64,000 nucleotides of DNA from an uncultured Eubacteriales bacterium (GTDB lineage Bacteria; Acidobacteriota; Aminicenantia; Aminicenantales; CALLJL01), in assembly GCA_964627255.1 (NCBI GenBank), contig CAZVIN010000007.1:3051-67050 (forward strand). The letters run 5' to 3'. Positions within the stretch are counted from its first letter, which is position 1. Each line of letters starts with the position of its first letter. Below the pieces are notes generated by a model. That model was not told the DNA's origin. It saw only the letters and a list, made by a program, of their open reading frames with translations, and did not search any database. Made by a program: the position numbers and the translations under genes. Of the stretch, positions 16,976-60,578 are shown in pieces.

Positions 16976-16997
16976 GCTTTACAAATCAGGGAGGTTT

Positions 16998-17831: not shown

Positions 17832-17840
17832 CAGGTTTAG

Positions 17841-18302
17841 ATGCGTCATTGGTCAAAGTCGTCGTTAATTATCCTGCTGGCGCTCTTACTCCAGTTCCTC
17901 TGGGGGTCAACTCCGCGAGCGATTAATGACCTTTTTAATTTTTTTTCAATCATCGTCGTTTATTTAGCTTTGCGCCACGGAGAAATAGCGGGGACCTTGA
18001 GTGGCACTGTCGCCGGCTTGGCCCAAGATGCCTTATCTCTCCATGTTTTTGGACTGGCCGGATTAACTAAAACTGGGCTTGGCTTTGGTGTTGGCCTGGC
18101 TTTTCGCAAATTAAATCTTCAACCCTTAGGCCGACAACTCTTGATTTTATTTTTTGCCTGTTGGTTTGAACTGCTGGTTTGGACCGGCCTGGCTTATTTA
18201 ATCTTTGGCTTGAAGGCTTCGGTCTGGTCCGGGACATTCTGGCTTCAGCCGTTGACTACCGCGCTGGTGGCCGGACTTCTTTTTCGTCTTAATGACCGCT
18301 GA
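17841..18302 (+). CDS. mreD: Rod shape-determining protein MreD
   Basis: 153 aa polytopic membrane protein in the mreBCD position. Confidence 0.75.
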   Translation: MRHWSKSSLIILLALLLQFLWGSTPRAINDLFNFFSIIVVYLALRHGEIAGTLSGTVAGLAQDALSLHVFGLAGLTKTGLGFGVGLAFRKLNLQPLGRQLLILFFACWFELLVWTGLAYLIFGLKASVWSGTFWLQPLTTALVAGLLFRLNDR

Positions 18303-18345
18303 ACAAAAGAATGATGGCTAAGATAACAAAATATTTATAATTTCG

Positions 18346-20148: not shown

Positions 20149-21232
20149 CCGGCGTCTCTTACGAGAAATTGACGGCTTGACTATCGGACTTATCCTCATT
20201 CTGTCGCTTATCGGCGTTCTTTTTATCTACAGCTCTTCTTACTATTTGTCCAGCCAGTACTATGCCAAGCAAATTCTGTTCCTGTTAATAAGCGTGGGGG
20301 GCCTAATTTTGGCCCTGGCGATTGACTATCAGCACCTGCTGATTTTTTCCTTACCAATTTATATTGTGACAAACCTAATATTGCTCGTCACCTTGTTTTT
20401 GAGTCGCCAGATTGCCGGGATGCGAGGCTGGCTGGTTTTCCCCCTTTTCCGCCTTCAGCCCGCTGAAATAGCTAAGGTTGCTCTTATTTTAATCTTAGCC
20501 TCTTTTTTCTCCCAGTATCGACGTGAAAGGCTCACCCTTCAGAGCATTTTGGGCAGTGTTGGTTTGACGGCAGTGCCTTTTTTGTTAGTTCTCTTACAAC
20601 CCGACTTGGGGACCGCGGCCTGCTACCTTCCGTTGCTTCTTGCCTCTCTCTTTTTAGCCGGCTTAAGTCGACGGGCCATGGCTTTATTGTTTATTTTGGT
20701 TTTAATTTTCGGCGCTTTCAGCTGGCATTTTTATCTCAAAGATTATCAAAAAAAAAGATTAATCACAGTCATTGCTCCTTATCAGGACAAGCGGGGCGCC
20801 GGCTACCATCTTCTTCAGTCGAAGATTGCCATTGGCTCTGGCGGCTTCTCAGGTAAAGGTTTCAAGAAAGGAACGCAGAGCCAGCTGCGTTTTCTCCCCG
20901 CCCGACATACCGACTTCATTTTTTCCGTAATTTCTGAGGAGTTTGGTTTTCTCGGAAGCGTGAGTGTTCTTCTCCTGTTTTTCTGGCTAATATGGCGCCT
21001 GCTGCGCGCGGTCGAATTGGCCAGAGATAGAGCCGGCAAGTACATTATTTTTATGGTGGCTTGTCTCATATCCTATGAAACATTGATTAACATCGCCATG
21101 GTTATCGGCTTTTTTCCCGTTGTCGGCATCCCCTTACCTTTTTTAAGCTATGGCGGCTCCTCGCTCTTAACTCATTTTTTGGCTGTGGGTCTGGTGCTTA
21201 ACGTGAGAATGAGGCGGTTGGTTAATGTTTAA
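20141..21232 (+). CDS. rodA: Rod shape-determining protein RodA (SEDS family peptidoglycan polymerase)
   Basis: 363 aa FtsW/RodA/SpoVE family protein. Overlaps mrdA by 8 nt. Confidence 0.9.
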   Translation: MIDRRLLREIDGLTIGLILILSLIGVLFIYSSSYYLSSQYYAKQILFLLISVGGLILALAIDYQHLLIFSLPIYIVTNLILLVTLFLSRQIAGMRGWLVFPLFRLQPAEIAKVALILILASFFSQYRRERLTLQSILGSVGLTAVPFLLVLLQPDLGTAACYLPLLLASLFLAGLSRRAMALLFILVLIFGAFSWHFYLKDYQKKRLITVIAPYQDKRGAGYHLLQSKIAIGSGGFSGKGFKKGTQSQLRFLPARHTDFIFSVISEEFGFLGSVSVLLLFFWLIWRLLRAVELARDRAGKYIIFMVACLISYETLINIAMVIGFFPVVGIPLPFLSYGGSSLLTHFLAVGLVLNVRMRRLVNV

Positions 21233-23780
21233 AAATTACCCTTGGCAGGAGGAGAGAGCCTTCTTTGAATTGCTTCGTTTAGTCCAAAAACCCGGTAGGT
21301 ATACGGGCGGAGAATGGAATAGCTGGCGAAAGGACCCACAACAAGTTAAGACCAAGATAGCCCTGGCTTTTCCCGATGCTTACGAGGTTGGAATGTCCTA
21401 TTTAGGGCAAAAAATTCTTTATGAAATTATCAATTCTCAACCTGACCTTTTAGCCGAAAGAGTTTTTGCCCCTTGGCCGGATATGGAAGCTGAGCTGAGG
21501 CGGCGGGGTTGGCCTCTTTTTACTCTTGAAAACCGTCTCCCCCTCCGCTCGTTTGATATAGTTGGTTTTTCGCTCCTTTACGAGCTAAATTACACTAATA
21601 TTTTAACCATTCTTGACCTCGGCCAGATTCCTTTTCGAACTGAAGCCAGAGATGAAGCCGCGGCCTTAGTCATAGCGGGAGGGCCGGGCGCCTTTAATCC
21701 TGAGCCTTTGGCGCCCTTTTTTGACCTTTTTCTGTTGGGTGATGGAGAAGAGGCGATTTTAGAGATCATTCGGACATATCAAGAGCTACGCGCGGCAGGA
21801 ATGAATCGCCGCTCGCTTCTGAAACATTTAGCCTCGGTGGAAGGAGTTTATGTGCCTTTTTTTTATGAAGCTCGGCGGGGGGCCAATTCTTCTTTGCTGA
21901 CAGTAAAGCCCAAGGAAGACGTCCCCAAGGTCATTCGCAAAAGAATCTTAAGGCAATTTGACCAGGCGCCCTTTCCCATTTCGATCATTGTTCCCCATAT
22001 TGAAATTATTCACGACCGGGTGGCAGTTGAAGTAGCGCGGGGTTGCCCGCAAAAATGCCGTTTTTGTCAGGCCACGAGCCTTTATTTTCCCTTCCGTTTT
22101 CGCGACCCACAAAGAGTTTTAACGACAACTCTTTCCAGCCTGAAAGCAACAGGCTATGAAGATGCTTCCTTAATGGCTCTTTCTATCGGCGATTATCCTT
22201 ATTTTGACGAGCTTATCCAGGCTTTGATGGTGGAATTAGAGAAACGTTACATTTCCCTCTCGCTTTCTTCCCTCAGGCCATCTGGGTTGACCGCAGAGGC
22301 GGTTAAAAATATTGGCCGCGTCCGGAAAACCGGTTTTACCATTGTGCCTGAAGCCGGCAGCGAGCGTTTACGCCGGGTAATCAACAAAAATTTAAGCGAA
22401 GCGGAAGTGCTTCGCGCTGCGGAATTAGCTTTTAGGCATGGCTGGCGAATTTTGAAACTTTATTTCATGTTTGGCCTGCCTACGGAGACTAAGGAGGATT
22501 TAGATGGCATCGTCAAGCTGACGGAAGACGTTCTCGGGTTGGGCCGCAAGATTCTGTGCCGTCCGCCCTTAATTAATTTGAGTCTTTCGCCTTTTATCCC
22601 CAAACCGCATACTCCTTTTCAATGGTTAGCCATGGCGAGTTGTCAAGAATTAGAAGAAAAGTTGGCTTATCTTAAATCCCAGTTGCGCCGCCTTCCTTCG
22701 GTTAAGGTTAAAGACAGGTCAGTCGAAATGGCCCAGTTAGAAGCTATTTTTTCCCGAGGCGACCGTCGCTTGGCCGACGTGTTAGAAAGAGGCTGGAGGA
22801 AAGGGGCGCGGTTTGATAGTTGGGGAGACCGTCTTCAATGGCCTTTGTGGGAAGAGTCTTTTAATTTTCTTGGCTTATCAATCCAGGATTATCTCGGTTC
22901 TTTTGGCCTGGAAGCGGAATTGCCTTGGGATCACTGTCATCTGGGAATTGAAAAGGAATATCTTAAAGAAGAATTGGCTAAAGCCCAAAGGGGGGAAACA
23001 ACTCCTTCTTGTCTCGATAACAAGTGCCGGGAATGTCAGGGTTGTTCTGCTCCTGAACTCTTCAAGCCAAAATTGCCTGAAGCTTCGGCTTGGAAAATAC
23101 CATGGCCAAGCAATAGCATAAAAAGAGCCAAGCCCATTCAGCCGACTTTTCGTTATCTTGTTTTCTATGAGAAAGCTGAAGAAGCCCGCTTCTTAGGGCA
23201 TCTGGATTTTATGAGAACCATATCCCGGGTTCTGCGCCGGGGCGGCATACCGGTAGCCTTTTCTGAGGGCTTTCATCCCAAGATTAAACTTAGCTTTCCG
23301 CCACCTTTGCCTTTAGGCATGGAAGGTTATCGAGAGTGCTTTGAGTTTAAATCCCTTGAACCTTTAGAATCTGGGGCCTTTTTAAACACCACCAACGACC
23401 ACCTTCCCAAAGGGGTCAGGTTCATTGAATTGCGAGTCATCCCAGGGAAAGCTCCAGCTCTTGCGGAGAGACTGGAGGCGGCGATATATTCCCTGTCTCT
23501 GACTTATTTAAGAGCCAATAAAGAATTAAAAGAAAACTCTATCTCCGATGATTCGATTTTTCTCTGGCTTCAGGAAAAGGTCAAAGAAGTCGCTCCTTCC
23601 CTTGACCCGAGGATAAAAGTCTGGTTATCAGCTCCTTTGGATAAGCTTTTTCTTCGTTTTCCCGTGCCTGGAGGCGGCCTCAGACCGCAGGATTTTCTCC
23701 AACAGCACCTTGGTCTGGAGGGAATGGCGTTCTATTTGGCCCGAGAGGGATTCATTTTTAAAGAAGAAAAAGAAAATTGA
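21225..23780 (+). CDS. Radical SAM protein, fusion of TIGR03960-type B12-binding-domain radical SAM and TIGR03936 (DUF2344)-type domains
   Basis: 851 aa with a CxxxCxxC cluster (CPQKCRFC). N-terminus is typical of TIGR03960. The C-terminal approximately 230 aa match the family that is usually a separate adjacent gene. Overlaps the rodA stop. Confidence 0.75.
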   Translation: MFKNYPWQEERAFFELLRLVQKPGRYTGGEWNSWRKDPQQVKTKIALAFPDAYEVGMSYLGQKILYEIINSQPDLLAERVFAPWPDMEAELRRRGWPLFTLENRLPLRSFDIVGFSLLYELNYTNILTILDLGQIPFRTEARDEAAALVIAGGPGAFNPEPLAPFFDLFLLGDGEEAILEIIRTYQELRAAGMNRRSLLKHLASVEGVYVPFFYEARRGANSSLLTVKPKEDVPKVIRKRILRQFDQAPFPISIIVPHIEIIHDRVAVEVARGCPQKCRFCQATSLYFPFRFRDPQRVLTTTLSSLKATGYEDASLMALSIGDYPYFDELIQALMVELEKRYISLSLSSLRPSGLTAEAVKNIGRVRKTGFTIVPEAGSERLRRVINKNLSEAEVLRAAELAFRHGWRILKLYFMFGLPTETKEDLDGIVKLTEDVLGLGRKILCRPPLINLSLSPFIPKPHTPFQWLAMASCQELEEKLAYLKSQLRRLPSVKVKDRSVEMAQLEAIFSRGDRRLADVLERGWRKGARFDSWGDRLQWPLWEESFNFLGLSIQDYLGSFGLEAELPWDHCHLGIEKEYLKEELAKAQRGETTPSCLDNKCRECQGCSAPELFKPKLPEASAWKIPWPSNSIKRAKPIQPTFRYLVFYEKAEEARFLGHLDFMRTISRVLRRGGIPVAFSEGFHPKIKLSFPPPLPLGMEGYRECFEFKSLEPLESGAFLNTTNDHLPKGVRFIELRVIPGKAPALAERLEAAIYSLSLTYLRANKELKENSISDDSIFLWLQEKVKEVAPSLDPRIKVWLSAPLDKLFLRFPVPGGGLRPQDFLQQHLGLEGMAFYLAREGFIFKEEKEN

Positions 23781-23851
23781 CATCCTTTGCAAATTAAAAT
23801 ATAAGCGAAAACTATGATTATCTAAGCTTAGACTGGTGAAAGGAGGTTAAA

Positions 23852-25000
23852 GTGATTGATTTTAGTCTAACAGAAGAACAACAGGCTCTCCAAGCGATGG
23901 CCAAAGAATTTGCCCTTAAAGAAATGAGGCCGAACGCCGCCCGTTACGACCGGGGCGATGCCTTTCCTCAGGAGATAATGGAAAAGGCCTTTGCCGCTGG
24001 GTTTTTGACTTGTAACATCCCTGAAGAATACGGTGGCGGAGGGTTGGGTGACGTTGACACCGTCGTGGTGAGCGAGGAATTAGCCGCCGGTTGTGCAGGC
24101 ATGTTTACCACCATCATGGCTAACGCGCTGGCTTTTACGCCCATTATTCTTTTCGGAACAGACGAACAGAAGAAGAAATTTCTCGCGCCCTTTACTAAAG
24201 AGATGGGCTTTGCTTCTTTTTGCTTAACAGAAAGGGAGGCTGGTTCAGATGCCGGGTCTTTAAAAACCAAGGCCGAGAAAAAAGGCTCGGAATATATAAT
24301 TAACGGGTCTAAGTGTTTTATCACCAACGGCGGAATAGCTCGGCTTTATGTCGTTTTTGCTCTCACCGACCCTGAAAAAGGAGCCCGGGGGATAAGTGCC
24401 TTTATTGTGCCTCGAGATACGCCGGGAATAGTTATCGGCAAAGAAGAGGATAAGTTGGGCCACAGAGCGTCGAACACAGTTGAGATGTTTTTTGAGGATG
24501 TGCGCGTCCCGCAGGAAAATCTTTTAGGCAAAGAAGGCCTCGGTTTTATAGTGGCGATGAGAACTTTGGATAAAACCAGAGTTTCGGTGGGTGCGGCGGG
24601 AGTAGGGGTGGCTAAGGCGGCACTCGAATATGCTATCGACTATGCTAAAACCAGAGCTCAATTCGGTAAACCCATAGCTACCTTTCAGCATATTGCCTTC
24701 AAGATTGCCCAAATGGCCATGGAGGTCAACGCTGCCCGCCAGCTGGTTTATTATGCCGCCTGGTTAGCTGACCAGGGAAAACCCTGTGGAAAAGAATCCG
24801 CGATGGCTAAGTGCTTTGGTTCTGATGTGGCCATGAATACAACGATTGATTGCCTGCAGATTTTTGGCGGCTATGGCTATATGAAAGATTATCCGATGGA
24901 AAAGTTAATGCGCGATGCTAAACTTCTCCAGATTTATGAAGGCACTAACGAGATCCAGCGTTTAATTATTTCTCGAGAAGTTATCGGGCCGATTAAATAA
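23852..25000 (+). CDS. Acyl-CoA dehydrogenase (short/branched-chain type)
   Basis: 382 aa. GTG start after an AAAGGAGG RBS. ACAD N/M/C domains with a catalytic Glu near the C-terminus (YEGTNEIQ). Confidence 0.88.
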   Translation: MIDFSLTEEQQALQAMAKEFALKEMRPNAARYDRGDAFPQEIMEKAFAAGFLTCNIPEEYGGGGLGDVDTVVVSEELAAGCAGMFTTIMANALAFTPIILFGTDEQKKKFLAPFTKEMGFASFCLTEREAGSDAGSLKTKAEKKGSEYIINGSKCFITNGGIARLYVVFALTDPEKGARGISAFIVPRDTPGIVIGKEEDKLGHRASNTVEMFFEDVRVPQENLLGKEGLGFIVAMRTLDKTRVSVGAAGVGVAKAALEYAIDYAKTRAQFGKPIATFQHIAFKIAQMAMEVNAARQLVYYAAWLADQGKPCGKESAMAKCFGSDVAMNTTIDCLQIFGGYGYMKDYPMEKLMRDAKLLQIYEGTNEIQRLIISREVIGPIK

Positions 25001-42366: not shown

Positions 42367-43686
42367 TTAATGCGAATTAATGATTTCCCCGCGTAGGCTA
42401 TAAGGACCAAAAGAGGTAATCCTGACTTTCACCATTTTGTTCGTGACTTCCTCGGCTGAAGAGAAGTTCACTACCTGATAAGCTTCGTTACGTCCGGAAA
42501 AAAGCTGGGGTGTTTTTGAGCTGCGGCCAAGGCAAAGAACATCCATGACCTGACCGACTAAGCCTGAATTGAGCTCCAGCTGGATTTTTTTCTGGAGATC
42601 TTGCACCTCGATTAAACGGCGGCGTTTGACCTCGAAGGGAACATCATCGGGAAGTCGGGAGGCCGCGGTAAAAGGCCGAGGCGAATAACGAAAAGAAAAG
42701 ATATTAGTAAAACGGACTGCCTCCAAAAGGCTTAGAGTGGCCTCGAAGTCATTTTCTGTCTCCCCGGGAAAGCCGACGATGATGTCGGTGGAAAGGCTAA
42801 TTCCTGGTACCAACTCTCGGAGTAGAGCGATTTTCTCCAGGTATTCCTCGCGGCTGTATCCCCTTTTCATCCTCTGGAGGATTCGATTTGAGCCTGATTG
42901 TACGGGGAGATGAATCTGGCGACAAATATTCTTCTCCTTGGCCATAACGAGACCGACCTCCTTAGTTAGGTCCTTTGGATGGGAGGTGATAAAACGAATC
43001 CAACAGATATTTTTAATCAGGGAAATATTTTGGAGCAATTCCGCCAAAGTCCAGCCTGTTTCTTGGTCATAATAGCTTGTTATGCTTTGTCCCAACAATT
43101 GAATTTCCAGATAGCCTTTTAGAGCCAGCTCTTCCACCTCTTTGAGGATGGCCCGGGCTGGCCGGTATTTTTCTCGGCCACGGGCGAAGGGCACGATGCA
43201 ATAGGAACAGAAATTGTTACAACCTTCCATCGCAGGAACATAAGCACTGACTGTACTTTCTCTGAGAATAAGAGGGGAAGGGTGTTCTCGCCATTGACTG
43301 GTCCAAGCCGTTAAGCTGGCTCTTTCGTCTCGATTAATAAGCTGAAGCAGCTCGGGATAATTATCGGGGCCAAGAATATAATCAATCACTGGGTGACCCT
43401 GAAGGAGCTCTTTAGAGTGAAGCTGGGCGACACAACCGACAACTGCCACCTTGAACGGCCTGTTTTTCTTAGTCTGTTTGAGCCTACCCAAGAGCGAAAA
43501 GAATTTTTCCACTGATTTGGCTCGGACGGCGCAGGTGTTGATAATAACCAGGTCGCTTTCTTCAACTGTCGCCACCTTTTGCCATCCTTGGCTCGCTAAT
43601 AATCCAGCAAGATGTTCAGAGTCGCTTTCGTTCATTTGACAACCGAAGGTATGGACAAAAAAGCGACGGGGAAGAGAAGTGACCAT
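42367..43686 (-). CDS. miaB: tRNA (N6-isopentenyl-A37) methylthiotransferase MiaB-family
   Basis: 439 aa. N-terminal MTTase domain FFVHTFGCQMNESDSE, radical SAM CNNFCSYC cluster, and a C-terminal TRAM domain. Confidence 0.88.
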   Translation of the reverse strand: MVTSLPRRFFVHTFGCQMNESDSEHLAGLLASQGWQKVATVEESDLVIINTCAVRAKSVEKFFSLLGRLKQTKKNRPFKVAVVGCVAQLHSKELLQGHPVIDYILGPDNYPELLQLINRDERASLTAWTSQWREHPSPLILRESTVSAYVPAMEGCNNFCSYCIVPFARGREKYRPARAILKEVEELALKGYLEIQLLGQSITSYYDQETGWTLAELLQNISLIKNICWIRFITSHPKDLTKEVGLVMAKEKNICRQIHLPVQSGSNRILQRMKRGYSREEYLEKIALLRELVPGISLSTDIIVGFPGETENDFEATLSLLEAVRFTNIFSFRYSPRPFTAASRLPDDVPFEVKRRRLIEVQDLQKKIQLELNSGLVGQVMDVLCLGRSSKTPQLFSGRNEAYQVVNFSSAEEVTNKMVKVRITSFGPYSLRGEIINSH

Positions 43687-44235: not shown

Positions 44236-44358
<123 letters not shown>

Positions 44359-44529: not shown

Positions 44530-46221
44530 TTAGCTATTGGCTTCTTCCCCCAAGTTATGGCGAAGCATTTCCCTGGCGTTCTGAAGAGAAGCAGGCGTGA
44601 TATGACTGCCTGAAAGTAGCCGGGCCATCTCTTTAACCCTTTCTTCAAAAGCAAGTTTCTTGACCGAGGTAAAGGTTCTGGCCCCTTCTACCCGCTTATC
44701 AATCCGAAAGTGATGACTGGCAAAAGAAGCTATTTGGGGTAAATGCGTGATGCAAATAACCTGATGCCGACGGGCTAAGGAACGCAATTTTTGGGCAATA
44801 AAATCAGCCGTCTTGCCGCCTATTCCAGAATCAATTTCGTCAAAAATTAGGGTTTTCCCGGCGGAGGCCTCTTTGCCGATGGCCTTAAGCGCCAGCATAA
44901 TTCGCGATAGTTCCCCGCCTGAAGCAATCCTGCGCAGCGGCCTTAATTCTTCTCCTGGGTTAGGACTAATTAAGAACTCAACCTCGTCCCAACCGCTTTC
45001 TTTAACTTGGTCGATACCATCTAACGAGCGGGGATGACTTGACACTTTAACCTCAAGGCGAGCCTGTTTCATCCCCAAGAGGGCGATTTCTTTTTCTAAA
45101 TGACGTTTGAGTTCCTTAGCTCCCTGCTGCCTCCGCTCAGAAAGAATTTGCGCTTTGTGCCGGTATTCTTCAAAAGTAGCCTCAATATCCCGGTTGAGGT
45201 CAATTAGTCTCTCTTCTGAACTGAGCAATTCTTCTCTTTCTTTTTCGCATTTTTGGAGATAATCTAAGATGGCTTGTATATCTCCGCCATATTTACGTTT
45301 AAGCTTCTCGAGTTGACTCAGCCTCTCTTCTATTTTTTCTAAACGGTCTGGGGCCGTTTCTTGTTGTTCGCGAAAGCGAAGCAGCCCCTCCACTGTTTCC
45401 CGGACCAAAATAGTTAAAGGCTCGAGGCTGCGGGCTAATTCTTGAAAATTAGAATCGAACTGACCTAATTCCTCCAGATAAGAGGAAAAACGTTGGAGTG
45501 ATGAGAGCAGAGAATTGTCTCCATAATAAGCCGTTTCCAAAGCTTTTTCACAAAGCAAGGCGATCTTGGTGGCATTTTTGAGTCGATGCCGCTCATTGAG
45601 CAACTCTTCCCACTCTCCAGGCCGCAAGTTAGCTCGCCTAATTTCTTCCACTTGGTAGGCCAAAAAATCAAGCCTTTTTTCTCTTTCTCTTTGCCTCTCT
45701 TCGATGGCCAATTTTTCTTCCCGCAGCGTTCTTAACCGGTGGCTAAGAGCAGCGACTTCCTGGCGAAGGGCCCATGCTTCTATGTAGTCATCGAGATAAT
45801 TTAAATGATTTTCGAGATAAAGAAGAAAGATGTGGTCGTTCTGGCCGTAAATATCCACCAGCTCGTCGGCAATTTCTTTAAGACGGCGGACGGGGACAAG
45901 GATCCCGTTGATGTAAGCCCGGCCAGCTCCGTCGGCCGTAATTGACCGCTGAAGAAAGATAGTCCCATCCTCAAGATAGGGCGCAACTGGCGAATCCGGG
46001 GAAACATTTTTCGCCTGGAAGACAGCCTCGACGGAAGCTTCTTTTTTCCCTGTCCTGATGACTTCGCTGGAAGCTCGCTCTCCCAGAAGAAGTTTAATTC
46101 CGTCAATGATAATCGATTTACCAGCTCCAGTTTCACCGGTAAGAATGGTAAACCCTGGAGATAACGAGAGCTCCAGGTCTTCAATCGTGGCTAAATTGCG
46201 GATGCGAAGCGAAACAATCAT
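44530..46221 (-). CDS. recN: DNA repair protein RecN
   Basis: 563 aa SMC-like protein with the N-terminal Walker A motif GETGAGKS, a central coiled coil and a C-terminal signature/Walker B region. Confidence 0.92.
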   Translation of the reverse strand: MIVSLRIRNLATIEDLELSLSPGFTILTGETGAGKSIIIDGIKLLLGERASSEVIRTGKKEASVEAVFQAKNVSPDSPVAPYLEDGTIFLQRSITADGAGRAYINGILVPVRRLKEIADELVDIYGQNDHIFLLYLENHLNYLDDYIEAWALRQEVAALSHRLRTLREEKLAIEERQREREKRLDFLAYQVEEIRRANLRPGEWEELLNERHRLKNATKIALLCEKALETAYYGDNSLLSSLQRFSSYLEELGQFDSNFQELARSLEPLTILVRETVEGLLRFREQQETAPDRLEKIEERLSQLEKLKRKYGGDIQAILDYLQKCEKEREELLSSEERLIDLNRDIEATFEEYRHKAQILSERRQQGAKELKRHLEKEIALLGMKQARLEVKVSSHPRSLDGIDQVKESGWDEVEFLISPNPGEELRPLRRIASGGELSRIMLALKAIGKEASAGKTLIFDEIDSGIGGKTADFIAQKLRSLARRHQVICITHLPQIASFASHHFRIDKRVEGARTFTSVKKLAFEERVKEMARLLSGSHITPASLQNAREMLRHNLGEEANS

Positions 46222-47601: not shown

Positions 47602-48378
47602 TTAGAAAGAGAAAATACCTCTGAGGTTTAAACTCCAGTCGCTGCCGCCCTTATGAGGTAAGTAAGCAGCTTGCCCGCGAAAGGAAAGATGCGAGGAAAA
47701 GATGAAGGTGGCGCCGGCGGAGAGCGAGAATTTAGCCTTAGCTTTAATTTCCTTAGTTTCTTCTCCCGTCAGATTCTCTATCAATTCTCTTAAAATGAAT
47801 TTCCCCGAAAGATAATTATATTGGACAGAAAGAAAGGGGATAAAGTTTTCATAACCCAAGTAGGCTAAAACTGGTCCAGCCGAAAGCTCGTGCCAGCTGG
47901 GAGTACTTTTGAGCTCGCCCTCAACCGCCAGGTCAGGGATGAGCCATTTTTTTTCGCTTCCACTGTAGCTCAAGAAACGGACTTGCCCGCCAACTCCAAA
48001 AGAATCAAAAGGGAAAACCTTGCTCACCTCGGCGCCAAACAATGTGCCTCCTAAGCCGCCTCCCTCGAATTCAATCGAAAACGGCAGCTGTCGGAAGATA
48101 AGACTTTTATAATTAGAAGAGGCATAGCCACCGATGAGAGAAAAAACATAACCGTCGGCAACCTCGGCTTCTAAGCGGAGAGCGGTGAAATAAGAATTAA
48201 GCGGTGTGACTGATTGGGCCTCATCCCAGGTAATATCGCGCTTGAAAATTTCTGCCTCCACACCCAAGCGAAATTGGAAACGAAACGGTTCGGTTGGTGT
48301 CGTCTGCTGGGCGGTAACCAAAGACACCGAACTAAAAAGAAAGAGCCAAAAGAAAAGCACGGTAATAATTTTTTTCAT
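47602..48378 (-). CDS. Outer membrane beta-barrel protein (hypothetical)
   Basis: Signal peptide, alternating amphipathic strands, C-terminal ...GIFSF with a terminal Phe. Confidence 0.6.
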   Translation of the reverse strand: MKKIITVLFFWLFLFSSVSLVTAQQTTPTEPFRFQFRLGVEAEIFKRDITWDEAQSVTPLNSYFTALRLEAEVADGYVFSLIGGYASSNYKSLIFRQLPFSIEFEGGGLGGTLFGAEVSKVFPFDSFGVGGQVRFLSYSGSEKKWLIPDLAVEGELKSTPSWHELSAGPVLAYLGYENFIPFLSVQYNYLSGKFILRELIENLTGEETKEIKAKAKFSLSAGATFIFSSHLSFRGQAAYLPHKGGSDWSLNLRGIFSF

Positions 48379-53000: not shown

Positions 53001-55022
53001 TTATTCGGGTAAAGAAGAAGCTAAGAACTGGGTGAGCTCAAGAGCCGCTAACCCTTCCTTTCCCAGGTCTTTGAGACCATCACGCACCATGGTTAGGCAG
53101 AAAGGACAGGTGGTGATTACCGCCTCAGCTTGAGTGGTGGCTATTTCGTCAGCCCGGATACGGTTAATCCGTTGGCCTAATTTTTCTTCAGTCCACATCA
53201 AACCGCCGCCCGCGCCGCAGCAGAAGCCGTGCTCTTGTCGCCGCGGCAACTCTTTTAGCTTCACTCCTGGGATAGAGCGAAGTAAGTAACGAGGTTCAGC
53301 AATCAAGTGGTGGTGGCGAGCATAATAACAGGAGTCATGTAACGTTATCGGCGTTTCCCTCGTTGTTCCCTTAAAAGAGATTTTGCCTTCGTCGACCAAA
53401 AAAGTTAAAAGTTCTAAATGCGAAACTACCTGAATTCGGCTCAGAAATTCTCTATCGCTGGCGGACATATCGGTAAAAATCGAGAGCAGACGAGGGTACT
53501 CATATTTGAGCGTGTGGTAGCCATGGGGACAGAAGACGAGAATTTTTTTAACTCGATATTGACTGAAAAGCTCGAGATTCTGACGGGCCAGAGCCTGAAA
53601 AAGATATTCGTTGCCTAAGCGACGGGCGGCGTCGCCACAACATTTTTCTTCTTCGCCCAAGATGGCAAAATTCACCCCCGCTTGTCGGAGCAGACGAACC
53701 ATGGCTCTTGAAATTGCCTGACCCAGTTCATCAAAAGAACCAGCGCAGCCAACAAAAAATAGCCACTCCGCCTCAGGATTTTCAGCCAGGCGAGGGACTT
53801 TTTCTTTTTCGGCCCATTCCCCGCGGCGGGAAAAACCAATGCCCCAGGGATTAGCGTTCGTTTCGAGGTGGCGAAAGAAACTGTTGAGTTCAGTCGGGAA
53901 CCGGCTTTCCATCAGAACCTGAGCCTGTCTTAAACCAAAAATCTTGGTCAAATGTTCAATTTCTACCGGGCAAACATGCATGCAAGCCCCACAAGTTGTG
54001 CAGGTCCAAAGCTCGTCGGGCTTTATGACTTCCGGGACTATGGCGGGCAATTTTTCTCGATTTTTCTTATGAATCGGAAAATAAGAGCTGAGCAAATGAC
54101 GTTCGAGGTTATAAATAATCATTTTGGGCGAGAGAGGCTTGCCAGAGAGGAAAGCAGGACAGACATCCTGACATCGGCCGCATTCGATGCAAGCAAAAGC
54201 ATCGAGACAATCTTTCCATGTCAAGTCGAGAGCCTTTTCTATCCCATAGACCTCAGTCTTTTCTAAGTTTATAGGTTCTATTTCACCCGGGCTTGTTTCG
54301 CGGTGAAAAAGCAAGTTAAAGGGACCAGCAAACATGTGAAAATACTTGGAGTGGGGGACATAGGCGATAAAAGCGTAGACAATGACAAGATGAAGCCACC
54401 AGGAAAGATGCAGAAGGGAAGAAGGTTGGTTGGCTGTCGCTCCAGCTCCCAAAAAGAAGCGACTGAGAAAAGGGCCGAGGAAGGAAAAACGAAGTTGTTC
54501 AGGCTGGTGGAGATATTTGCAGGCCTCAAAAAAAAGATAGCTCAGGGTTGTGGCCAGAAGAAAAAAATAGATAATGGCCGAGTCCAGAGCAGAAGTCCTC
54601 AGGGCCCGAGGTCGAAAAAGAAAGCGGCGAAGAGCTAAATAAATTGCTGCCGTAAGAACCACCAGGGCCATAAAATCGATCAGGCCGGAGACGATATCTT
54701 CTGCTAAGCCGTGACCGAAGAGGGAAAAACCGCTGAGAAAACCTTCCAGAGTATGGTTAACCGTCATGGTATCAAAGGTCAGTGCGGCATAAAAGAGGCC
54801 GGCGTGAATTATCCCTGTTCCTAAGCGTTCATTTTTCAAAGTACAGCGCTGGAGAAAAACCAGGCTGAGCACGCGCCAAAAACGACGGCCAAGATTATTT
54901 GTTCTCTCCACCGTTTTGGCGCTGCGGATAATTTGATAGCGGCGATAAACAGGATGGAAGAAGGCGCCGACGGTGATTATAACTAGGAGAGATAGAATAA
55001 TTTTTTCGATAATTGAAAGCAT
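53001..55022 (-). CDS. HdrE/HdrD-like (DsrMK-like) membrane-bound Fe-S oxidoreductase
   Basis: 673 aa. N-terminal approximately 250 aa form a polytopic membrane domain with conserved His (NarI/HdrE-like). Two 4Fe-4S ferredoxin motifs (CIECGRCQDVCP, CTTCGACMHVCP) and two CCG domains (CCGDAARR, CCGAGGG). Confidence 0.8.
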   Translation of the reverse strand: MLSIIEKIILSLLVIITVGAFFHPVYRRYQIIRSAKTVERTNNLGRRFWRVLSLVFLQRCTLKNERLGTGIIHAGLFYAALTFDTMTVNHTLEGFLSGFSLFGHGLAEDIVSGLIDFMALVVLTAAIYLALRRFLFRPRALRTSALDSAIIYFFLLATTLSYLFFEACKYLHQPEQLRFSFLGPFLSRFFLGAGATANQPSSLLHLSWWLHLVIVYAFIAYVPHSKYFHMFAGPFNLLFHRETSPGEIEPINLEKTEVYGIEKALDLTWKDCLDAFACIECGRCQDVCPAFLSGKPLSPKMIIYNLERHLLSSYFPIHKKNREKLPAIVPEVIKPDELWTCTTCGACMHVCPVEIEHLTKIFGLRQAQVLMESRFPTELNSFFRHLETNANPWGIGFSRRGEWAEKEKVPRLAENPEAEWLFFVGCAGSFDELGQAISRAMVRLLRQAGVNFAILGEEEKCCGDAARRLGNEYLFQALARQNLELFSQYRVKKILVFCPHGYHTLKYEYPRLLSIFTDMSASDREFLSRIQVVSHLELLTFLVDEGKISFKGTTRETPITLHDSCYYARHHHLIAEPRYLLRSIPGVKLKELPRRQEHGFCCGAGGGLMWTEEKLGQRINRIRADEIATTQAEAVITTCPFCLTMVRDGLKDLGKEGLAALELTQFLASSLPE

Positions 55023-55033
55023 CCGCCCTCCTC

Positions 55034-55897
55034 TCAGAAGGGGACAGCAATTCCCCAGATAATTTTATGGAATGATTGTTGGTTACCGAGCTGACTCATA
55101 GCTATGTCTTTCCAGAAACCACCTCCTAAGGAAAGCTCTAACCAGCGAGCCACCTTGAGCCGCAAGATCAAGTCGAGGAGAAGGCTCTGGCCCCGGGCCA
55201 AAAGAACAGCGCTCTGGAAAATAGCCTGGAAACTCACGATAGCTTCAGGGGTTAAAGCTACACCCAACCGGGCTCCATACTCTTGTTTGAGCTTTTCTCC
55301 CGAAAAGTCGAGATAGGCTCGCTGGTTGGTGTGGTGAAAAAACCAGATAAAGGGCTCAAATAAAATGCGGTCAGAGGAAAAGCTCAAGCCAAACCCAAAG
55401 TAGTTGCGGTTTAAATAATAAGGTTTTCCATGCTGATAACTTACATGGTCGGAGTCATGGTTGCTGTCGTGGCCGATGATCAGAAGAAAATTCCGGCCGA
55501 TAAATTGCCGAAGCGAAAAATGCCAGTCAAACTTAGTGCGATTATGGCCGTCATCATGGGTAATAAGCTGAGCTAAAAGGGAGGTGCTTCTTGTCAAGTC
55601 CAGATAATTTTGGAAGCCAAAGTTCCAGCGGTCCTCGGGGCCGCTGAGGTCGTTAAAGCTCGGAAAATTGGCCGGCAAAAGAAGCGAGGCAAAAAATTCG
55701 CCTCTGGGGTCAAGCCGGCCGGTTTCAAGTAAGGATATCTTTTCCTGCTGCGGTCGATAAATAAAAATGGGCTGGGCCAGAATATGGGCAGGGATAAAAA
55801 ATAACATAAGCAATAGCCATGTGAGAGGGATAGTGAAGTTAATTTTGAAATTATTGCAATCTAACCTGGAGCCTATTTTTATCATCTTTTCATTCAT
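55034..55897 (-). CDS. His-rich outer membrane beta-barrel protein (hypothetical)
   Basis: Signal peptide and His clusters (HDDGHNRTKFDWHF, GHDSNHDSDHVSYQHG, FFHHTN). C-terminal ...GIAVPF. The 5' end lies within the (AATG)n tract, so the true start may be the downstream Met (MIKIGS). Confidence 0.6.
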   Translation of the reverse strand: MNEKMIKIGSRLDCNNFKINFTIPLTWLLLMLFFIPAHILAQPIFIYRPQQEKISLLETGRLDPRGEFFASLLLPANFPSFNDLSGPEDRWNFGFQNYLDLTRSTSLLAQLITHDDGHNRTKFDWHFSLRQFIGRNFLLIIGHDSNHDSDHVSYQHGKPYYLNRNYFGFGLSFSSDRILFEPFIWFFHHTNQRAYLDFSGEKLKQEYGARLGVALTPEAIVSFQAIFQSAVLLARGQSLLLDLILRLKVARWLELSLGGGFWKDIAMSQLGNQQSFHKIIWGIAVPF

Positions 55898-55946
55898 TCA
55901 TTCATTCATTCATTCATTCATTCATTCCACCCACCCACCAACCAAC
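55891..55946. repeat. Compound tetranucleotide microsatellite: (CATT)9-(CCAC)3-(CAAC)2 (plus strand)
   Basis: Read directly. On the minus strand it reads (AATG)9 and contains the annotated ATG of the His-rich OMP gene. Lies between the TonB-dependent receptor stop and the OMP start. Confidence 0.95.
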
Positions 55947-56161
55947 CGTTAATTCATTCAACTATCCATCCACCTACCTACGAACCTAATTAATTTCCCA
56001 ACTAGCTACTAATTTTTTTCTTTCCTCTCTTAACTTAATGCTATTACTACCACCACTTCTACTTTTGCTAATGCTACCATTACACCCATTAATGCTACCA
56101 TAACTAATACTTCTTGCTTTTAGTTATTTCATCCCACCTCGCTCATTTAGTTTCGCTTATA

Positions 56162-58981
56162 CTAAAATTCAATCTTTAATCCAAGGCGGAAAACCCGCGG
56201 CGACTGGATTTCTGTGGCGAAACGCAAGGGAAATTGCGGCGACGTCCATTCGTTTTCTTCTGTTGCCAAGTGTTGGTTAAAAATATTATATCCTTCGATA
56301 AAAAGCGAGCTTCTTGTGCCTAAAAGGGACCAAGTCTTTTCCAGCCGGAAATCAACGGTCAGGTTGAATTCATAGCGGGCAATGCCCCGTGGGAAAGCTT
56401 GAATGATCACCGGACCCTGTCTTAGGCCGGTGACAATTATTTTCCGGCTAAAGGGCTGGCCGTCGTAGTATTTGAAAATAAAACCAGCCCTAAAATCGGC
56501 TGGAAGAAAAAGGCTAAAACCTAACCGGGCAGTATAGGCTCGGTCAAACCTCAGTCTCCCTCGGGCGTTAACGAGAGAATTGGGGTCATCATAGAGCCAG
56601 CCTATTACGGCCTCGTCATTTTCCCATTCGGTGTTACCTGGACTCGTAGTGCCGAAAGCTTCAGTCGCGGTAAAAGAAAAAAAGAAAATGTGCTTGGTGA
56701 ATCGGCGCAAGACAGTAAGGTCGAGACCACGATAGCGGGAGCTGCGCTCGGTCAAGTTGGGATTGCTCAGCTCAAAAAAATCCCGGCCCAATGCCTGCGG
56801 AAGTCGGTTATAAATGATAAAGCTCAGGTCATCGTGAGTTCCCCAGATGCGGTCATCGCCGCTATCATTGAGCGTGAACGTTTCAAAGGCCGATTCCGGC
56901 ACGCCGATATTTTCCGTTTCCACCAAGTTACGGGTTGTCCGGTGAAAGCCACTTAGCGAAAGATAGAATTCTCGGCTCAGCCTGTAGATAAAACTAACGG
57001 CATATTCGGTCATGACCGGACGGCGAAGGTTAGAATCCAGCCGAGAAAAAAAAGGTCCTTCTCGCCTTAGTAAAGGACCGAGTTCTCCTTCGTCAAATTT
57101 ATAATTTAAATTGCGGTCAAGCCAAGCATAAATCAAGGCTCCTTCGGCTGCGGCGTTTCCCCATCGCAGATAATTAAGAGGAAGACAAAAAGCTGACTGG
57201 CCGAAAAAGAACTTCAGCGAGCCCTTTTTCCCGTCGCTGAAGGGAACAGTTAGGCTGGCCCGAGGCAAAAGGCTGAGCCAGTCAAGGCGCGCCGCCGAGG
57301 TGCTGGTAAACCCGCCCCAACTCCTCTTTGGAGAAGGCGGTTGACTCCAACCTCGAGTCAGAATCAACTTGGCGCCCATGCCAAGAAGAAAGTGGCGCGA
57401 AATTTTCCAACTATCTTCTATATAAAGGCTGATATCAAGGGAGTTGTCTAATTCCCTGGAAACAGGCGCAAAGAACGCTACCAGGGCCGGCTGGCCTTCG
57501 AGAAACAGCAGATGGGTTGAGCCTGGAATCTGAAGCTCTGAGGAATAAAAGCGTCGAGAAACTTCAAGCCCGAAGCTGGCCAAATGGATTGAACCTGACG
57601 GGAAGTTTATCAGCCAATTACCGTTGACTTGAAAATTCAGATGGCCTTGCGTCTCGTCTCCATATCTTAGCGGCGCTTGCCAGACAACTGGGCGAAAGAG
57701 CTCTCGGCAGGGAATTAAAGAAGGACTGACGTAGGGGTCAGATGATATTTTTTGATAGGCTAAACTTAAGCCAGAATGAAAGGAGAGTTGAGCTGAAGGG
57801 AGGGATTGCCAGAATAATTGCGCGACATGAAAATTACGTTGGGCTCTGGTTGTGGCTTCTGGGGCCATTTTTCGTCGCGCCCCCGCTTCTGCCTCGCTGG
57901 CTTGCTGACCTGTCCAAAAAAAACTCAGCTCCCCCCGGGAAGTAGCTTGGTCAAGCCTGATTAGCCCAGAAAGAAGGCGACTTTGATTATGGCCAATATA
58001 ATCAGCTATGTGGCGGCTTAAATCCTGAGAAAAAAAACTGAGATAGAAGCGACGATTTTCAGAAGCCAGAGGACCGGAGAGCCAGAGTCTAAGCTTTCGG
58101 TCGTGAAGAAAAGTATGGGCATCAGTCAGCCCCTCTTTTTCTAAGGCCGGGGTGATGTTGGAGGTTGTCAACCCTGGTTCAATTAGCGTATAGCTTGTCC
58201 CACCCTGAAAGCGGCTGGCACCTCTTTTTGTGGCCATCTCGATCCTTCCTCCAGGGGAAGCGGCTGAAGCCGGATGAAGACTGTTTCGATGACGAATTGC
58301 CTCCACCGTCTGGAGGTCCGGAAGAAAAAGAGGCGTTCCGCCAAAATAGGGCTCGGTAACATTAAACCCGTTAAGGCGAAATTCATTCTGCGTCCAGGAG
58401 GTGGCGCCACGGGCGCTAAATAATGCTGGAGAATCAGCCCAGAGACCTCCAGAGTCAATGCGGTTAGTGGTAGCCGATAAATCCTGGTTTTCGATTATCG
58501 ACCAAAGATTATCGGCTGAGGGAAGGAGCGAAAGCTGGAAGCCGTTAACAACGGTTTGGGCCCCAATATCAGCAAAGTCGTATTTTTCCACTAAGGGTGG
58601 GCGAGTGGAATCAGAAAATTTGAATTCAAGCTGCAGAAACTGAGCTGGTTCAAGCTTTATTTCCTCTTTCCATTCTCTTTTGTTTGCCAGCTTTAGTGTG
58701 AGATTGTAATTCCCTGGGCTTAATCCAAGCCATATTAAATGACCAGCAGAATCAGGACAGCCAACCAACGGCGAGGTCAAGAAAGAAGCTTCGAGCCAGA
58801 CCGTTACTTCCGAGGAGGGCAAGGTTAAGCCCAAAAATTTAAGGTGAAGTGACGAGTTATTCTGAGCCGCCGCTGAAGAGATTAAGCAGAGAACCGATAA
58901 ATGGACGCAAAACCACGCTTGACGAAAAGGCTTTTTCGGACGGGAAAGGCGTCCGTTTGAATTTTTCTTCATATTAAGCAC
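56162..58981 (-). CDS. TonB-dependent receptor with N-terminal carboxypeptidase-regulatory-like domain
   Basis: 939 aa with a signal peptide, a CarbopepD_reg-like N-terminal domain, a plug domain, and a long beta-barrel ending in ...GLKIEF (terminal Phe). Confidence 0.8.
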   Translation of the reverse strand: MLNMKKNSNGRLSRPKKPFRQAWFCVHLSVLCLISSAAAQNNSSLHLKFLGLTLPSSEVTVWLEASFLTSPLVGCPDSAGHLIWLGLSPGNYNLTLKLANKREWKEEIKLEPAQFLQLEFKFSDSTRPPLVEKYDFADIGAQTVVNGFQLSLLPSADNLWSIIENQDLSATTNRIDSGGLWADSPALFSARGATSWTQNEFRLNGFNVTEPYFGGTPLFLPDLQTVEAIRHRNSLHPASAASPGGRIEMATKRGASRFQGGTSYTLIEPGLTTSNITPALEKEGLTDAHTFLHDRKLRLWLSGPLASENRRFYLSFFSQDLSRHIADYIGHNQSRLLSGLIRLDQATSRGELSFFWTGQQASEAEAGARRKMAPEATTRAQRNFHVAQLFWQSLPSAQLSFHSGLSLAYQKISSDPYVSPSLIPCRELFRPVVWQAPLRYGDETQGHLNFQVNGNWLINFPSGSIHLASFGLEVSRRFYSSELQIPGSTHLLFLEGQPALVAFFAPVSRELDNSLDISLYIEDSWKISRHFLLGMGAKLILTRGWSQPPSPKRSWGGFTSTSAARLDWLSLLPRASLTVPFSDGKKGSLKFFFGQSAFCLPLNYLRWGNAAAEGALIYAWLDRNLNYKFDEGELGPLLRREGPFFSRLDSNLRRPVMTEYAVSFIYRLSREFYLSLSGFHRTTRNLVETENIGVPESAFETFTLNDSGDDRIWGTHDDLSFIIYNRLPQALGRDFFELSNPNLTERSSRYRGLDLTVLRRFTKHIFFFSFTATEAFGTTSPGNTEWENDEAVIGWLYDDPNSLVNARGRLRFDRAYTARLGFSLFLPADFRAGFIFKYYDGQPFSRKIIVTGLRQGPVIIQAFPRGIARYEFNLTVDFRLEKTWSLLGTRSSLFIEGYNIFNQHLATEENEWTSPQFPLRFATEIQSPRVFRLGLKIEF

Positions 58982-59174
58982 ACCAAAAGTCGCTCTATTT
59001 TTTCTACTTTAAGCCTGTCCTGTCAAGAAAAGGTTTATTGTTTTGGGCTAATTTTTGGCCGCTCTGGATATATTTCTTTATGAGGACCGCCTGGTGATTC
59101 TCGATATCAATTTGACTCGCTGGCCGAAATGATAAATTATGATTGCCGTTGATTTAAAACGGAGGCCAGAAAAC

Positions 59175-60578
59175 ATGGAGAAGAGAGAAAAAGTTGATAT
59201 AGTCATAATCGGGGCTGGTCCGGGTGGCTATGTGGCCGCTTTGCGCGGGTCTCAGCTAAAAAAGAAAGTGGCGTTAATAGAAGAGGATAAAGTAGGTGGA
59301 ACCTGTACCAATTATGGTTGTATTCCCACTAAATTTCTTCTTCACGAGACGCAGGTTTTAACCGAAGCCAGGCGGTCACCAAGAATAAAAGGAAAAGAAG
59401 TTCTACAGTTTGACTGGGCCGAAGCCCAGAAAACTCGTCAGAGTGTTATTGACCGGTTAGTCAAAGGAATCGAGTTTCTTCTCGAAAAAAATGGGGTGAA
59501 GCTAATTAAAGGTAAAGCCAGGTTTGGGGATAAGCGTCTGATAAGTGTCATTACCCCGGAGGAGGAAATTCTGATTGAGGCCGAAAAAGTTATCCTGGCT
59601 ACTGGAAGTCGGTCCGCTGACTTAAGCTGTCTCCAAGCCGACGGTCGGAAGATATTGACCAGCCGGGAGGCTTTAGAGTTAAAGGAACCGCCGTCGCGCT
59701 TAATCATTATCGGTGCCGGAGCGATAGGCTTAGAAATGGGGTCTATTTTTTCGCGGGTCGGGACAAAGGTTATTATCCTGGAGATTCTACCCAGACTTCT
59801 TCCTGGTTCAGACCGGCAGTTGACTGAGAGGTTAGGTCGGTTTTTGAAACGCCAGGGAATTGAAATCCAGACAGAGATGAGGGTTGAAAAGGCAGAAGTC
59901 GCATCGGGTGGAGTTAAGTTGAGTGGCACCTGTCTTAAGACTAATTCGCCTTTCAGCCTCGAAGCTGACCTGGTTCTTTTAGCCGCCGGCCGGCGACCAA
60001 ATTCAGAAATTGTCAGGGATGTCGATTCCCGTCTCTGTGGCCCGGGTGGTTTTGTCCAAGTCAACCAATTTCTTGAGACAGCCTGGAAAGATGTCTATGC
60101 GGTTGGCGACCTTATTGGCGGGAAATTATTAGCTCATAAAGCCATGCATGAAGGAATCCTGGCGATGGAAAACGCCTCTGGAGCGCAACAGGTTTTAGAA
60201 CCCCAGACCATTCCCCTTGCCGTTTTCACTGACCCCGAACTGGCTGCGGTTGGCTGGACGGAAGAAGAAGCCCAAGAGATGGGGCTACGGCCAAGGGTAG
60301 GCGTTTTTCCGCTGCAGGCGAGCGGCCGAGCTTTAGCCATGGGAAAAACTGAGGGGCTGGTGAAAGTTGTGGCTGACGAAGCTGGCAAGATAGTTGGTGC
60401 CCACATTCTTTCCCCTTCGGCCTCTGAGATGATTGGCGAAATGACCTTGGCGGTACGGTTTGGGCTAAAACTGGAAGATATTGGCCGGACAATTCATGTC
60501 CATCCGACTTTGTCCGAAGCCCTTTCAGAAGTTAGCCTGAAGGCAATGAACCACGCCCTGCATTTGCTCAATGAATAA
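59175..60578 (+). CDS. lpdA: Dihydrolipoyl dehydrogenase
   Basis: FAD motif GAGPGGY, redox disulfide GGTCTNYGCIPTK, NAD motif GAGAIGLE, and C-terminal dimerisation His. ATG at 59175 after GGAGG. Confidence 0.9.
   Translation: MEKREKVDIVIIGAGPGGYVAALRGSQLKKKVALIEEDKVGGTCTNYGCIPTKFLLHETQVLTEARRSPRIKGKEVLQFDWAEAQKTRQSVIDRLVKGIEFLLEKNGVKLIKGKARFGDKRLISVITPEEEILIEAEKVILATGSRSADLSCLQADGRKILTSREALELKEPPSRLIIIGAGAIGLEMGSIFSRVGTKVIILEILPRLLPGSDRQLTERLGRFLKRQGIEIQTEMRVEKAEVASGGVKLSGTCLKTNSPFSLEADLVLLAAGRRPNSEIVRDVDSRLCGPGGFVQVNQFLETAWKDVYAVGDLIGGKLLAHKAMHEGILAMENASGAQQVLEPQTIPLAVFTDPELAAVGWTEEEAQEMGLRPRVGVFPLQASGRALAMGKTEGLVKVVADEAGKIVGAHILSPSASEMIGEMTLAVRFGLKLEDIGRTIHVHPTLSEALSEVSLKAMNHALHLLNE

Follow-up and report, generated by a model that had tools for sequence, protein, structure and literature searches.

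The stretch of DNA analysed here, called the window throughout, comprises 64,000 nucleotides of contig CAZVIN010000007.1 (positions 3,051 to 67,050 of the forward strand; assembly GCA_964627255.1) from an uncultured bacterium of the Aminicenantales lineage. Homologues of the proteins described below carry the annotation Candidatus Aminicenantes, an origin confirmed by 71 species-level genome loci. Our subject is a trio of consecutive genes, numbered in the direction of transcription: gene 1, encoding a putative outer-membrane transporter, gene 2, encoding a small outer-membrane barrel, and gene 3, encoding a membrane-bound oxidoreductase. An earlier reading, made from the sequence only, had described them as three co-directional genes, and open reading frames (ORFs) were found at the positions it gave, all on the minus strand. 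Gene 3 adds a new member to the EtfD family, one whose first CCG site is a variant, and gene 2 codes for an uncharacterised barrel specific to this lineage. The features of the locus are listed in Table 1.

The gap between genes 2 and 3, previously counted as 12 nt, is 11 nt in the sequence (55023-55033), and the distance of 264 nt between genes 1 and 2 had gone unmentioned. Simple scans predicted no terminator-like or sigma-70-like site in either intergenic gap of the trio. The genes are probably co-transcribed here. The promoter candidate just upstream of gene 1 is weak evidence, as the number of promoter-like sites in the region did not exceed the shuffled expectation. The window contained no riboswitch and gave no match to any RNA family. 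In relatives, gene 2 and the gene 3 orthologue (EtfD) are separated by 13-22 nt, and in most of them genes 1 and 2 overlap by 11 nt where the window has its spacer. Operon-like spacing is kept across genomes that are 50-55% identical.

Table 1. Features of the three-gene locus, with positions in the window
Feature	Position	Strand	Details
Gene 1	56162-58981	minus	939-aa ORF, GTG start, ATG 3 codons further in
Gene 2	55034-55897	minus	287-aa ORF
Gene 3	53001-55022	minus	673-aa ORF
Gene 1-gene 2 spacer, 264 nt	55898-56161	minus	12 C in 264 nt (4.5%) on coding strand; GGTT/GGTG repeats, then (ATGA)n
Perfect tetranucleotide microsatellite, 9.8 units	55889-55927	TTCA on plus, ATGA on coding (minus) strand	Tandem Repeats Finder (TRF); overlaps annotated gene 2 ATG
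Shine-Dalgarno sequence GAGGAGGG	55026-55033	minus	strong; read from sequence; directly 5' of gene 3 ATG, in gene 2-gene 3 gap
Sigma-70-like promoter candidate	58997-59026	minus	TTGACA-18-AAAAAT, 10/12; consensus scan; just upstream of gene 1
Gene 2 codons 143-166	55400-55471	minus	hhalign; H143-D-S145-(N/D)-H147-D-S-D … S153 … N163-R-N-Y166, invariant in 121 sequences
Gene 3 residues 1-250, haem-b/menaquinone domain	54273-55022	minus	about five hydrophobic helices
Gene 3 residues 270-355, two cubane [4Fe-4S] motifs	53958-54215	minus	C278, C281, C284, C288; C341, C344, C347, C351
Gene 3 residues 421-646, two CCG domains	53085-53762	minus	Pfam, 9ojn alignment, family alignment
Dihydrolipoyl dehydrogenase gene (lpd)	59139-60578	plus	Pfam; GGTCxNxGCIP and HPTLSE motifs; divergent from trio

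At loci carrying a gene 2 homologue, the order lpd (divergent), gene 1, gene 2, EtfD recurs in many Aminicenantes. A sample centred on gene 2 comprised 71 species-level loci, of which 60 were evaluable for EtfD and 51 for gene 1. EtfD was adjacent to gene 2 in 43 of the 60, displaced by an insert in 11 and absent from six, which included three with gene 2 divergent from a modABC-moeA-moaA operon; gene 1 was present in 37 of the 51. Because sampling around EtfD removes the ascertainment bias of the gene 2-centred sample, 67 evaluable metagenome loci were also collected around EtfD at 50-90% identity. Here the trio was complete in 26 loci, 21 had gene 1 and EtfD, 15 had EtfD alone and five had gene 2 and EtfD. 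Where gene 1 and EtfD occurred together without gene 2, EtfD followed gene 1 directly at a distance of 14-218 nt; where EtfD was alone, it was directly divergent from lpd at 140-570 nt. Every other combination of presence and absence of genes 1 and 2 was found in the same chromosomal slot. For 124 EtfD proteins placed on a tree built by the unweighted pair group method with arithmetic mean (UPGMA), parsimony required gene 2 to change state at least 7 times and gene 1 at least 11 times.

The slot lies between syntenic flanks, with nuo, a sulfatase gene and lpd on one side, and genes for a threonine-aldolase-like protein, a PASTA protein, rpe, an epimerase, bamD, a small outer-membrane protein, a subtilisin and SMC on the other. 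Of the upstream neighbours of this EtfD slot, lpd is the most constant. Since synteny extends to these unrelated genes, the adjacency of the trio says little by itself. EtfD is the backbone gene; genes 1 and 2 are accessory, inserted between lpd and EtfD and independently gained or lost by Aminicenantes lineages. As a minority of the EtfD-centred loci are complete and genes 1 and 2 vary independently, the trio is not an obligate functional unit. The comparison across genomes that had been suggested as a check thus bore out the recurrence of the arrangement in many Aminicenantes, but not its integrity. Nor is the arrangement a new type of system, as the description of it as an unreported operon type had implied: it consists of an EtfD-type gene behind two optional outer-membrane genes. 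We consider it reasonably probable that the locus holds three separable genes which probably share a transcript and do not form an obligate system. What counts against this conclusion is the tight spacing of genes 2 and 3 with its Shine-Dalgarno sequence and, in most relatives, the overlap of genes 1 and 2, both of which would be compatible with a genuine functional link as well. Operon-like spacing and conservation within a single lineage can overstate coupling; sampling around each gene in turn revealed the modularity.

A respiratory block of six genes, 6.6-7.4 kb long, lies between gene 2 and a paralogous HdrDE-like gene in about 11 species of Aminicenantes (locus L009, 11039-19772; also L014, L036, L048, L052, L053, L057, L059, L061, L067 and L078). 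The block encodes a multihaem cytochrome c with a weak MtrC-like domain, a PsrB-like 4Fe-4S protein, NrfD, a molybdopterin oxidoreductase with a twin-arginine translocation (TAT) signal, a 427-aa protein and a NapC/NirT cytochrome, and looks like a molybdoenzyme respiratory operon. The HdrDE-like paralogue linked to it (group B, as distinct from the Aminicenantes EtfD orthologues, group A) is 35-37% identical overall and has both CCG motifs complete. Molybdenum cofactor (Moco) riboswitches (RF01055, 65-74 bits) were found in L020 (4295-4412), L025 (9764-9881) and L040 (2194-2311), where they precede modABC-moeA-moaA. All three lie on the modA strand, divergent from a stand-alone gene 2, and because of this the riboswitch does not control gene 2. 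A molybdenum link for gene 2, considered for its position near the molybdoenzyme operon or modABC in some genomes, was rejected on account of this orientation and of the absence of any RNA family match in the window.

Gene 3 has about 7,900 homologues. Among PDB sequences its match was 9ojn_A (E=8.4e-102), aligned over query residues 109-312 and, separately, 332-670; in the soluble part, 323 residues could be aligned, and 45% of them are identical. This entry is the structure of Mycobacterium smegmatis EtfD, an electron transfer flavoprotein (ETF):menaquinone oxidoreductase (PMC13083937). EtfD has five transmembrane helices, one haem b and two cubane [4Fe-4S] clusters, and its CCG domains hold a non-cubane [4Fe-4S] cluster (D2) and a linear [3Fe-4S] cluster (D1); in mycobacteria it is needed for fatty-acid-driven respiration (PMC13083937). 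Pfam searches with gene 3 identified two CCG domains (E=1.3e-33) and 4Fe-4S dicluster/Fer4 matches, together with a NarI match below threshold (E=6.7e-4). The NCBIfam models for Hdr, DsrK, TfrB and GlpC all scored far below their cut-offs, the best being TfrB with 159 bits (cut-off 385); HdrB reached 25 (cut-off 345). The earlier description of the domains, a NarI-like haem-b domain fused to an HdrD-type Fe-S/CCG module, is correct.

Cofactor ligands were mapped onto gene 3 from the 9ojn alignment and the published list of EtfD ligands (PMC13083937), and then followed over 71 family sequences. The haem ligands H73 and H229, the haem-propionate arginine R283 and the menaquinone-site phenylalanine F218 were invariant. 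H229, R283 and F218 align with H241, R306 and F230 of M. smegmatis EtfD, and H73, in a region outside the HMMER alignment, would correspond to H78. All eight cubane cysteines align with EtfD ligands and were invariant in the same sequences. The second CCG site (D2) is complete, with C565, C601, C602, C639 and C642 invariant. The first CCG site consists of C426, C461, C462 and C498 together with a glycine, G501, giving the pattern C…CCG…CxxG. This glycine ends the sequence C498-P-H-G501 (codons 499-501, 53520-53528) and was invariant in 61 group-A sequences, whereas the group-B paralogues have cysteine at this position. The ligand set of the linear D1 cluster (M. smegmatis Cys503, 538, 581 and 584) is therefore incomplete in gene 3, with G501 in place of Cys584 and C462 as an extra cysteine. 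Because FadF and DgcB likewise lack D1 ligands (PMC13083937), these ligands are not a defining feature of the wider EtfD family. The Hdr signature of two complete CX(31-39)CCX(35-36)CXXC motifs is absent as well, since the first motif of gene 3 ends in CPHG.

The closest known system to gene 3 is mycobacterial EtfD (M. smegmatis, PDB 9OJN; M. tuberculosis Rv0338c), whose homologues include Bacillus subtilis FadF and Pseudomonas aeruginosa DgcB. Like EtfD, gene 3 is one polypeptide in which a multi-helix haem-b domain at the N terminus is combined with two cubane clusters and two CCG domains. It differs in lacking the disordered C-terminal tail of roughly 30 kDa, in being encoded behind outer-membrane protein genes, and in its first CCG site, which in EtfD reads C…CTG…CxxC and binds the linear [3Fe-4S] cluster. 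With HdrDE/HdrB and DsrMK it shares the order of modules (haem-b part, ferredoxin-like part, CCG domains) and both CCG doublets; unlike the methanogen HdrDE/HdrB and DsrMK-type enzymes, it has these parts fused in one chain and lacks the fifth cysteine of the first site. On these comparisons gene 3 is more plausibly an EtfD-family enzyme than the disulfide/thiol reductase that the sequence-only reading had proposed: its closest characterised relative is an ETF:menaquinone oxidoreductase, and its first CCG site lacks a cysteine present in all Hdr-type sites. The pattern of this site is unlike any described, and a different cluster type or ligation from that of EtfD would be expected. It represents a third state beside the five-cysteine site of Hdr and the linear [3Fe-4S] site of mycobacteria, and so bears on the evolution of such clusters.

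Electrons would pass from a soluble donor, likely ETF reduced by acyl-CoA dehydrogenases, to the cytoplasmic CCG/Fe-S module of gene 3, and onward through the two cubane [4Fe-4S] clusters and the single haem b to menaquinone. By analogy with its characterised relative, ETF is the most likely donor. An acyl-CoA dehydrogenase gene at 23852-25000 is the sole candidate for an ETF-dependent enzyme seen in the window. Two observations weigh against this reading: E. coli FixA/FixB, used as queries, detected no etfAB either in the window or up to 10 kb away in any of the related loci, and the paralogue of the molybdoenzyme/cytochrome operon is equally similar to gene 3, at 45% in the CCG part. Because an equally similar paralogue sits in such an operon, family membership does not fix the electron partner. 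By homology the Fe-S/CCG module would face the cytoplasm, and it could therefore not act on anything at the outer membrane. Gene 3 places an EtfD-type entry into the menaquinone pool in Aminicenantes, beside complex I genes in relatives, and its presence is compatible with acyl-CoA substrates being oxidised by respiration. The phylum is mostly described as fermentative.

Gene 2 encodes a protein with a signal peptide, an outer-membrane beta-barrel and a final phenylalanine. A total of 340 members of its family were detected; they are about 270-275 aa long, lack any Pfam domain and share about 46 invariant residues. Gene 2 itself matched nothing in Pfam or NCBIfam even at E≤10; the family profile found nothing real among PDB sequences and, against 1.84 billion representatives, retrieved its own family alone (one cluster and fragments). 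To judge from these searches, the family is confined to the Aminicenantes lineage. An AlphaFold2 model built from 41 sequences is a confident 12-stranded barrel with a predicted local distance difference test (pLDDT) score of 85.4, in agreement with the earlier description of a 287-aa outer-membrane barrel. Histidine accounts for 11 of the 287 residues (3.8%; 4.1% of the mature part); for the long ORFs of the window the mean is 1.85% and the 95th percentile 4.2%. The protein had been called unusually rich in clustered histidines; the enrichment is moderate rather than extreme, and several of the histidines are conserved. Over 121 family members, H114, H126, H143 and H147 were invariant and H188/H189 about 94% conserved.

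When gene 2 was compared with outer-membrane phospholipase A (OMPLA; E. coli PldA), both profile-to-sequence and profile-to-profile, the OMPLA segment H142-D-S144-N-G…S152…N156-R-x-Y was aligned with H143-D-S145-N-H…S153…N163-R-N-Y. The residues H143, S145 and N163 thus take the places of H142, S144 and N156. The score of 23-24 compares with 16.4±2.9 for column shuffles, 2 of 100 of which reached it (p about 0.02), and OMPLA was the best of six barrels, the others scoring 13 (Tsx), 12 (NanC), 19 (OmpT), 19 (OmpG) and 18 (a second outer-membrane protein of the window). Shuffling in blocks of 12 columns leaves the catalytic block intact and is not a clean null. A profile of 20 enterobacterial OMPLA sequences gave no gain over the single sequence because these are too alike. 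From the amphipathic pattern of the predicted strands, H143, S145 and H147 together with N163 and N165 are predicted to face the lipid at the extracellular end of strands 5 and 6. The catalytic triad of OMPLA is on the exterior of its barrel (PMC5043575), and the predicted placement of H143, S145 and N163 matches it. A second conserved cluster (H114, H126, H189, D124, D144 and D148) is predicted to face the lumen. Gene 2 would accordingly be pictured as a 12-stranded barrel, specific to the lineage, whose lumen is closed and salt-bridged and whose outer surface carries an invariant His-Ser-Asn set at the outer-leaflet end.

Both proteins are 12-stranded barrels. Gene 2 differs from OMPLA in having H147 in place of the oxyanion-hole Gly146, a loop before the asparagine that is 6 residues longer and five further conserved histidines, and in lacking the N-terminal extension. 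Several observations weigh against a relationship to OMPLA. The hhalign probability against E. coli PldA was 2-3% (E=0.013-0.026, 72-73 columns); PF02253 was unmatched at E≤10 in any of 41 family members; the additional histidines (H114, H126, H147, H188/H189) are unexplained by an OMPLA-type mechanism; and in the Foldseek ranking PcoB came first and OMPLA no higher than 12th. The alignment with OMPLA is thus a lead, not proof. Gene 2 is most likely an OMPLA-like outer-membrane lipid hydrolase, with hydrolysis as its putative activity. For gene 2 alone the main alternative is a metal-binding barrel, which the conserved His/Asp cluster and the PcoB match (E=5.7e-7, template modelling (TM) score 0.64 on the target, 10% identity) keep possible. 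The likeness to PcoB/CopB is one of fold alone, that of a 12-stranded barrel. Unlike those proteins, gene 2 has no Met/His-rich disordered N-terminus, its mature N-terminus (QPIFIYRPQQEK…) being free of any Met/His tract; it gave no match to the CopB Pfam family, and no pco/cop genes lie nearby. Gene 2 is a candidate for a new outer-membrane enzyme or metal-binding barrel. A porin-cytochrome conduit, brought to mind by the multihaem cytochromes of the group-B loci, was also considered and rejected: the barrel is too small, its lumen is charged and filled, and the window has no cytochrome genes here.

In the gene 1 protein, a signal peptide and a degenerate N-terminal region resembling CarboxypepD_reg are accompanied by a plug-like motif (…SARGATSWTQNEFRLNGFNVTEP…), and its C-terminal barrel has a final phenylalanine. 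The window copy passed no Pfam threshold: OMP_b-brl_4 (PF25183) scored 20.6 bits against a cut-off of 30, and there was no CarboxypepD_reg or Plug match. Its orthologues carried CarboxypepD_reg (PF13620) in 24 of 27 cases, OMP_b-brl_4 in 17 and PF00593 in two, with Plug (PF07715) weakly present in four (best E=0.021), and the family consensus includes a plug-like RG…N…NG.D.T.P motif. No TonB-dependent transporter (TBDT) was found in the PDB by sequence, the N-terminal transthyretin-like domain alone being matched. Like the Oar-type TBDTs (PF13620 with PF25183), the orthologues have both domains and the plug-like motif, and the protein has a C-terminal phenylalanine and a length of about 930 aa; unlike the Oar-type TBDTs, the window copy has a plug and barrel too diverged for Pfam thresholds. 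The earlier assignment to CarboxypepD_reg-type TonB-dependent receptors is in keeping with the domains of the orthologues; the window copy falls below threshold. It is reasonable on these grounds to regard gene 1 as a divergent Oar-type, TBDT-like barrel; the transporter class to which it belongs, in diverged form, is very large.

Where the trio is complete, it could be a true operon for lipid scavenging, in which a gene 2 lipase would free fatty acids or lyso-lipids, gene 1 would import them, and beta-oxidation would feed electrons through ETF and EtfD to menaquinone. We consider this unlikely. The OMPLA-like motif and fold of gene 2, the acyl-CoA dehydrogenase in the window, the operon-like spacing conserved in genomes 50-55% identical and the requirement for EtfD in fatty-acid-driven respiration of mycobacteria (PMC13083937) are consistent with it. 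Gene 2, however, is missing from more than half of the EtfD orthologue loci and gene 1 from 30%, gene 2 also occurs alone, by modABC or other genes, no beta-oxidation or etfAB genes lie nearby, and the homology of gene 2 to OMPLA is unproven. Moreover, TBDTs are not known to import fatty acids, for which FadL is the usual route. Less likely again is the fuller proposal that the complete trio is a lineage-specific respiration module for lipid scavenging, made up of a highly diverged OMPLA-like lipase not recognised before, an Oar-type transporter and an EtfD with a new cluster type at its first CCG site, its expression being tuned by the spacer with its hypervariable microsatellite.

It is more doubtful still that gene 3 is an Hdr-like, menaquinone-linked dithiol enzyme, acting for example on protein-bound dihydrolipoamide and working with the divergent lpd, with the outer-membrane genes as bystanders. 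Hdr-like complexes of sulfur oxidisers do use lipoate-binding proteins, the first CCG domain of gene 3 keeps the full 'CCG' of Hdr where M. smegmatis EtfD has CTG, and lpd is the most constant neighbour, directly divergent when genes 1 and 2 are absent. But with an invariant glycine for the last cysteine of the first CxxC the five-cysteine Hdr site is incomplete, the NCBIfam scores given above point away from Hdr, and the adjacency of lpd weighs little, since this gene is part of a backbone that is syntenic over tens of kb. Lowest of all, and very improbable, we rank the idea put forward in the sequence-only reading, reductive metal or cofactor uptake, in which a TBDT and a His-rich, PcoB-like channel would form an uptake pair coupled to a quinol-linked reductase of the imported metal or cofactor. 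It ranks lowest because the redox module would be cytoplasmic by homology, with a single haem beside it and no periplasmic redox site, and because the locus has no metal-related genes or riboswitch, the Moco riboswitches of other loci being on the modA strand. Genes 1 and 2 are also dispensable for EtfD, gene 2 lacks the CopB Pfam match and Met/His-rich N-terminal tail, and nothing was found in support of the proposal. The reading of three separable genes is the one that we retain.

Tetranucleotide repeats upstream of gene 2 were also seen in two close relatives of the window, in arrays that differ from that of the window and are longer. In L079 (protein 91% identical), positions 1-90 of the contig, which ends there, contain (GTTA)x10 and (GTTG)x7 in the spacer. 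In L094 (EtfD 90% identical), about 200 nt at 4930-5128 consist of (TAGG)7, (TAGA/CAGA)~17, (GTTA)7, (GATT)7 and (GTTG)6. The arrays of the window and of these two loci are all C-poor on the coding strand, and their units and lengths differ between close relatives. The spacer could be an expression-variable (contingency-like) repeat or one that breaks assemblies. A second array, (ATCT)x30, lies at 44237-44356 in the window, between minus-strand genes at 42367-43686 and 44530-46221, and tetranucleotide arrays may be a genome-wide trait of this lineage.

The remaining features belong to other parts of the window. A housekeeping block at 15896-25000 contains mreB, mreC, mreD, genes for PBP2, RodA and a large radical-SAM/DUF2344 protein, and the acyl-CoA dehydrogenase gene mentioned above. 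A 258-aa ORF at 47602-48378 has a signal peptide and a C-terminal phenylalanine (…LRGIFSF); it is kept beside bamD in relatives, where a faint match to the Autotransporter family was found, and is another small uncharacterised outer-membrane barrel of the syntenic backbone.

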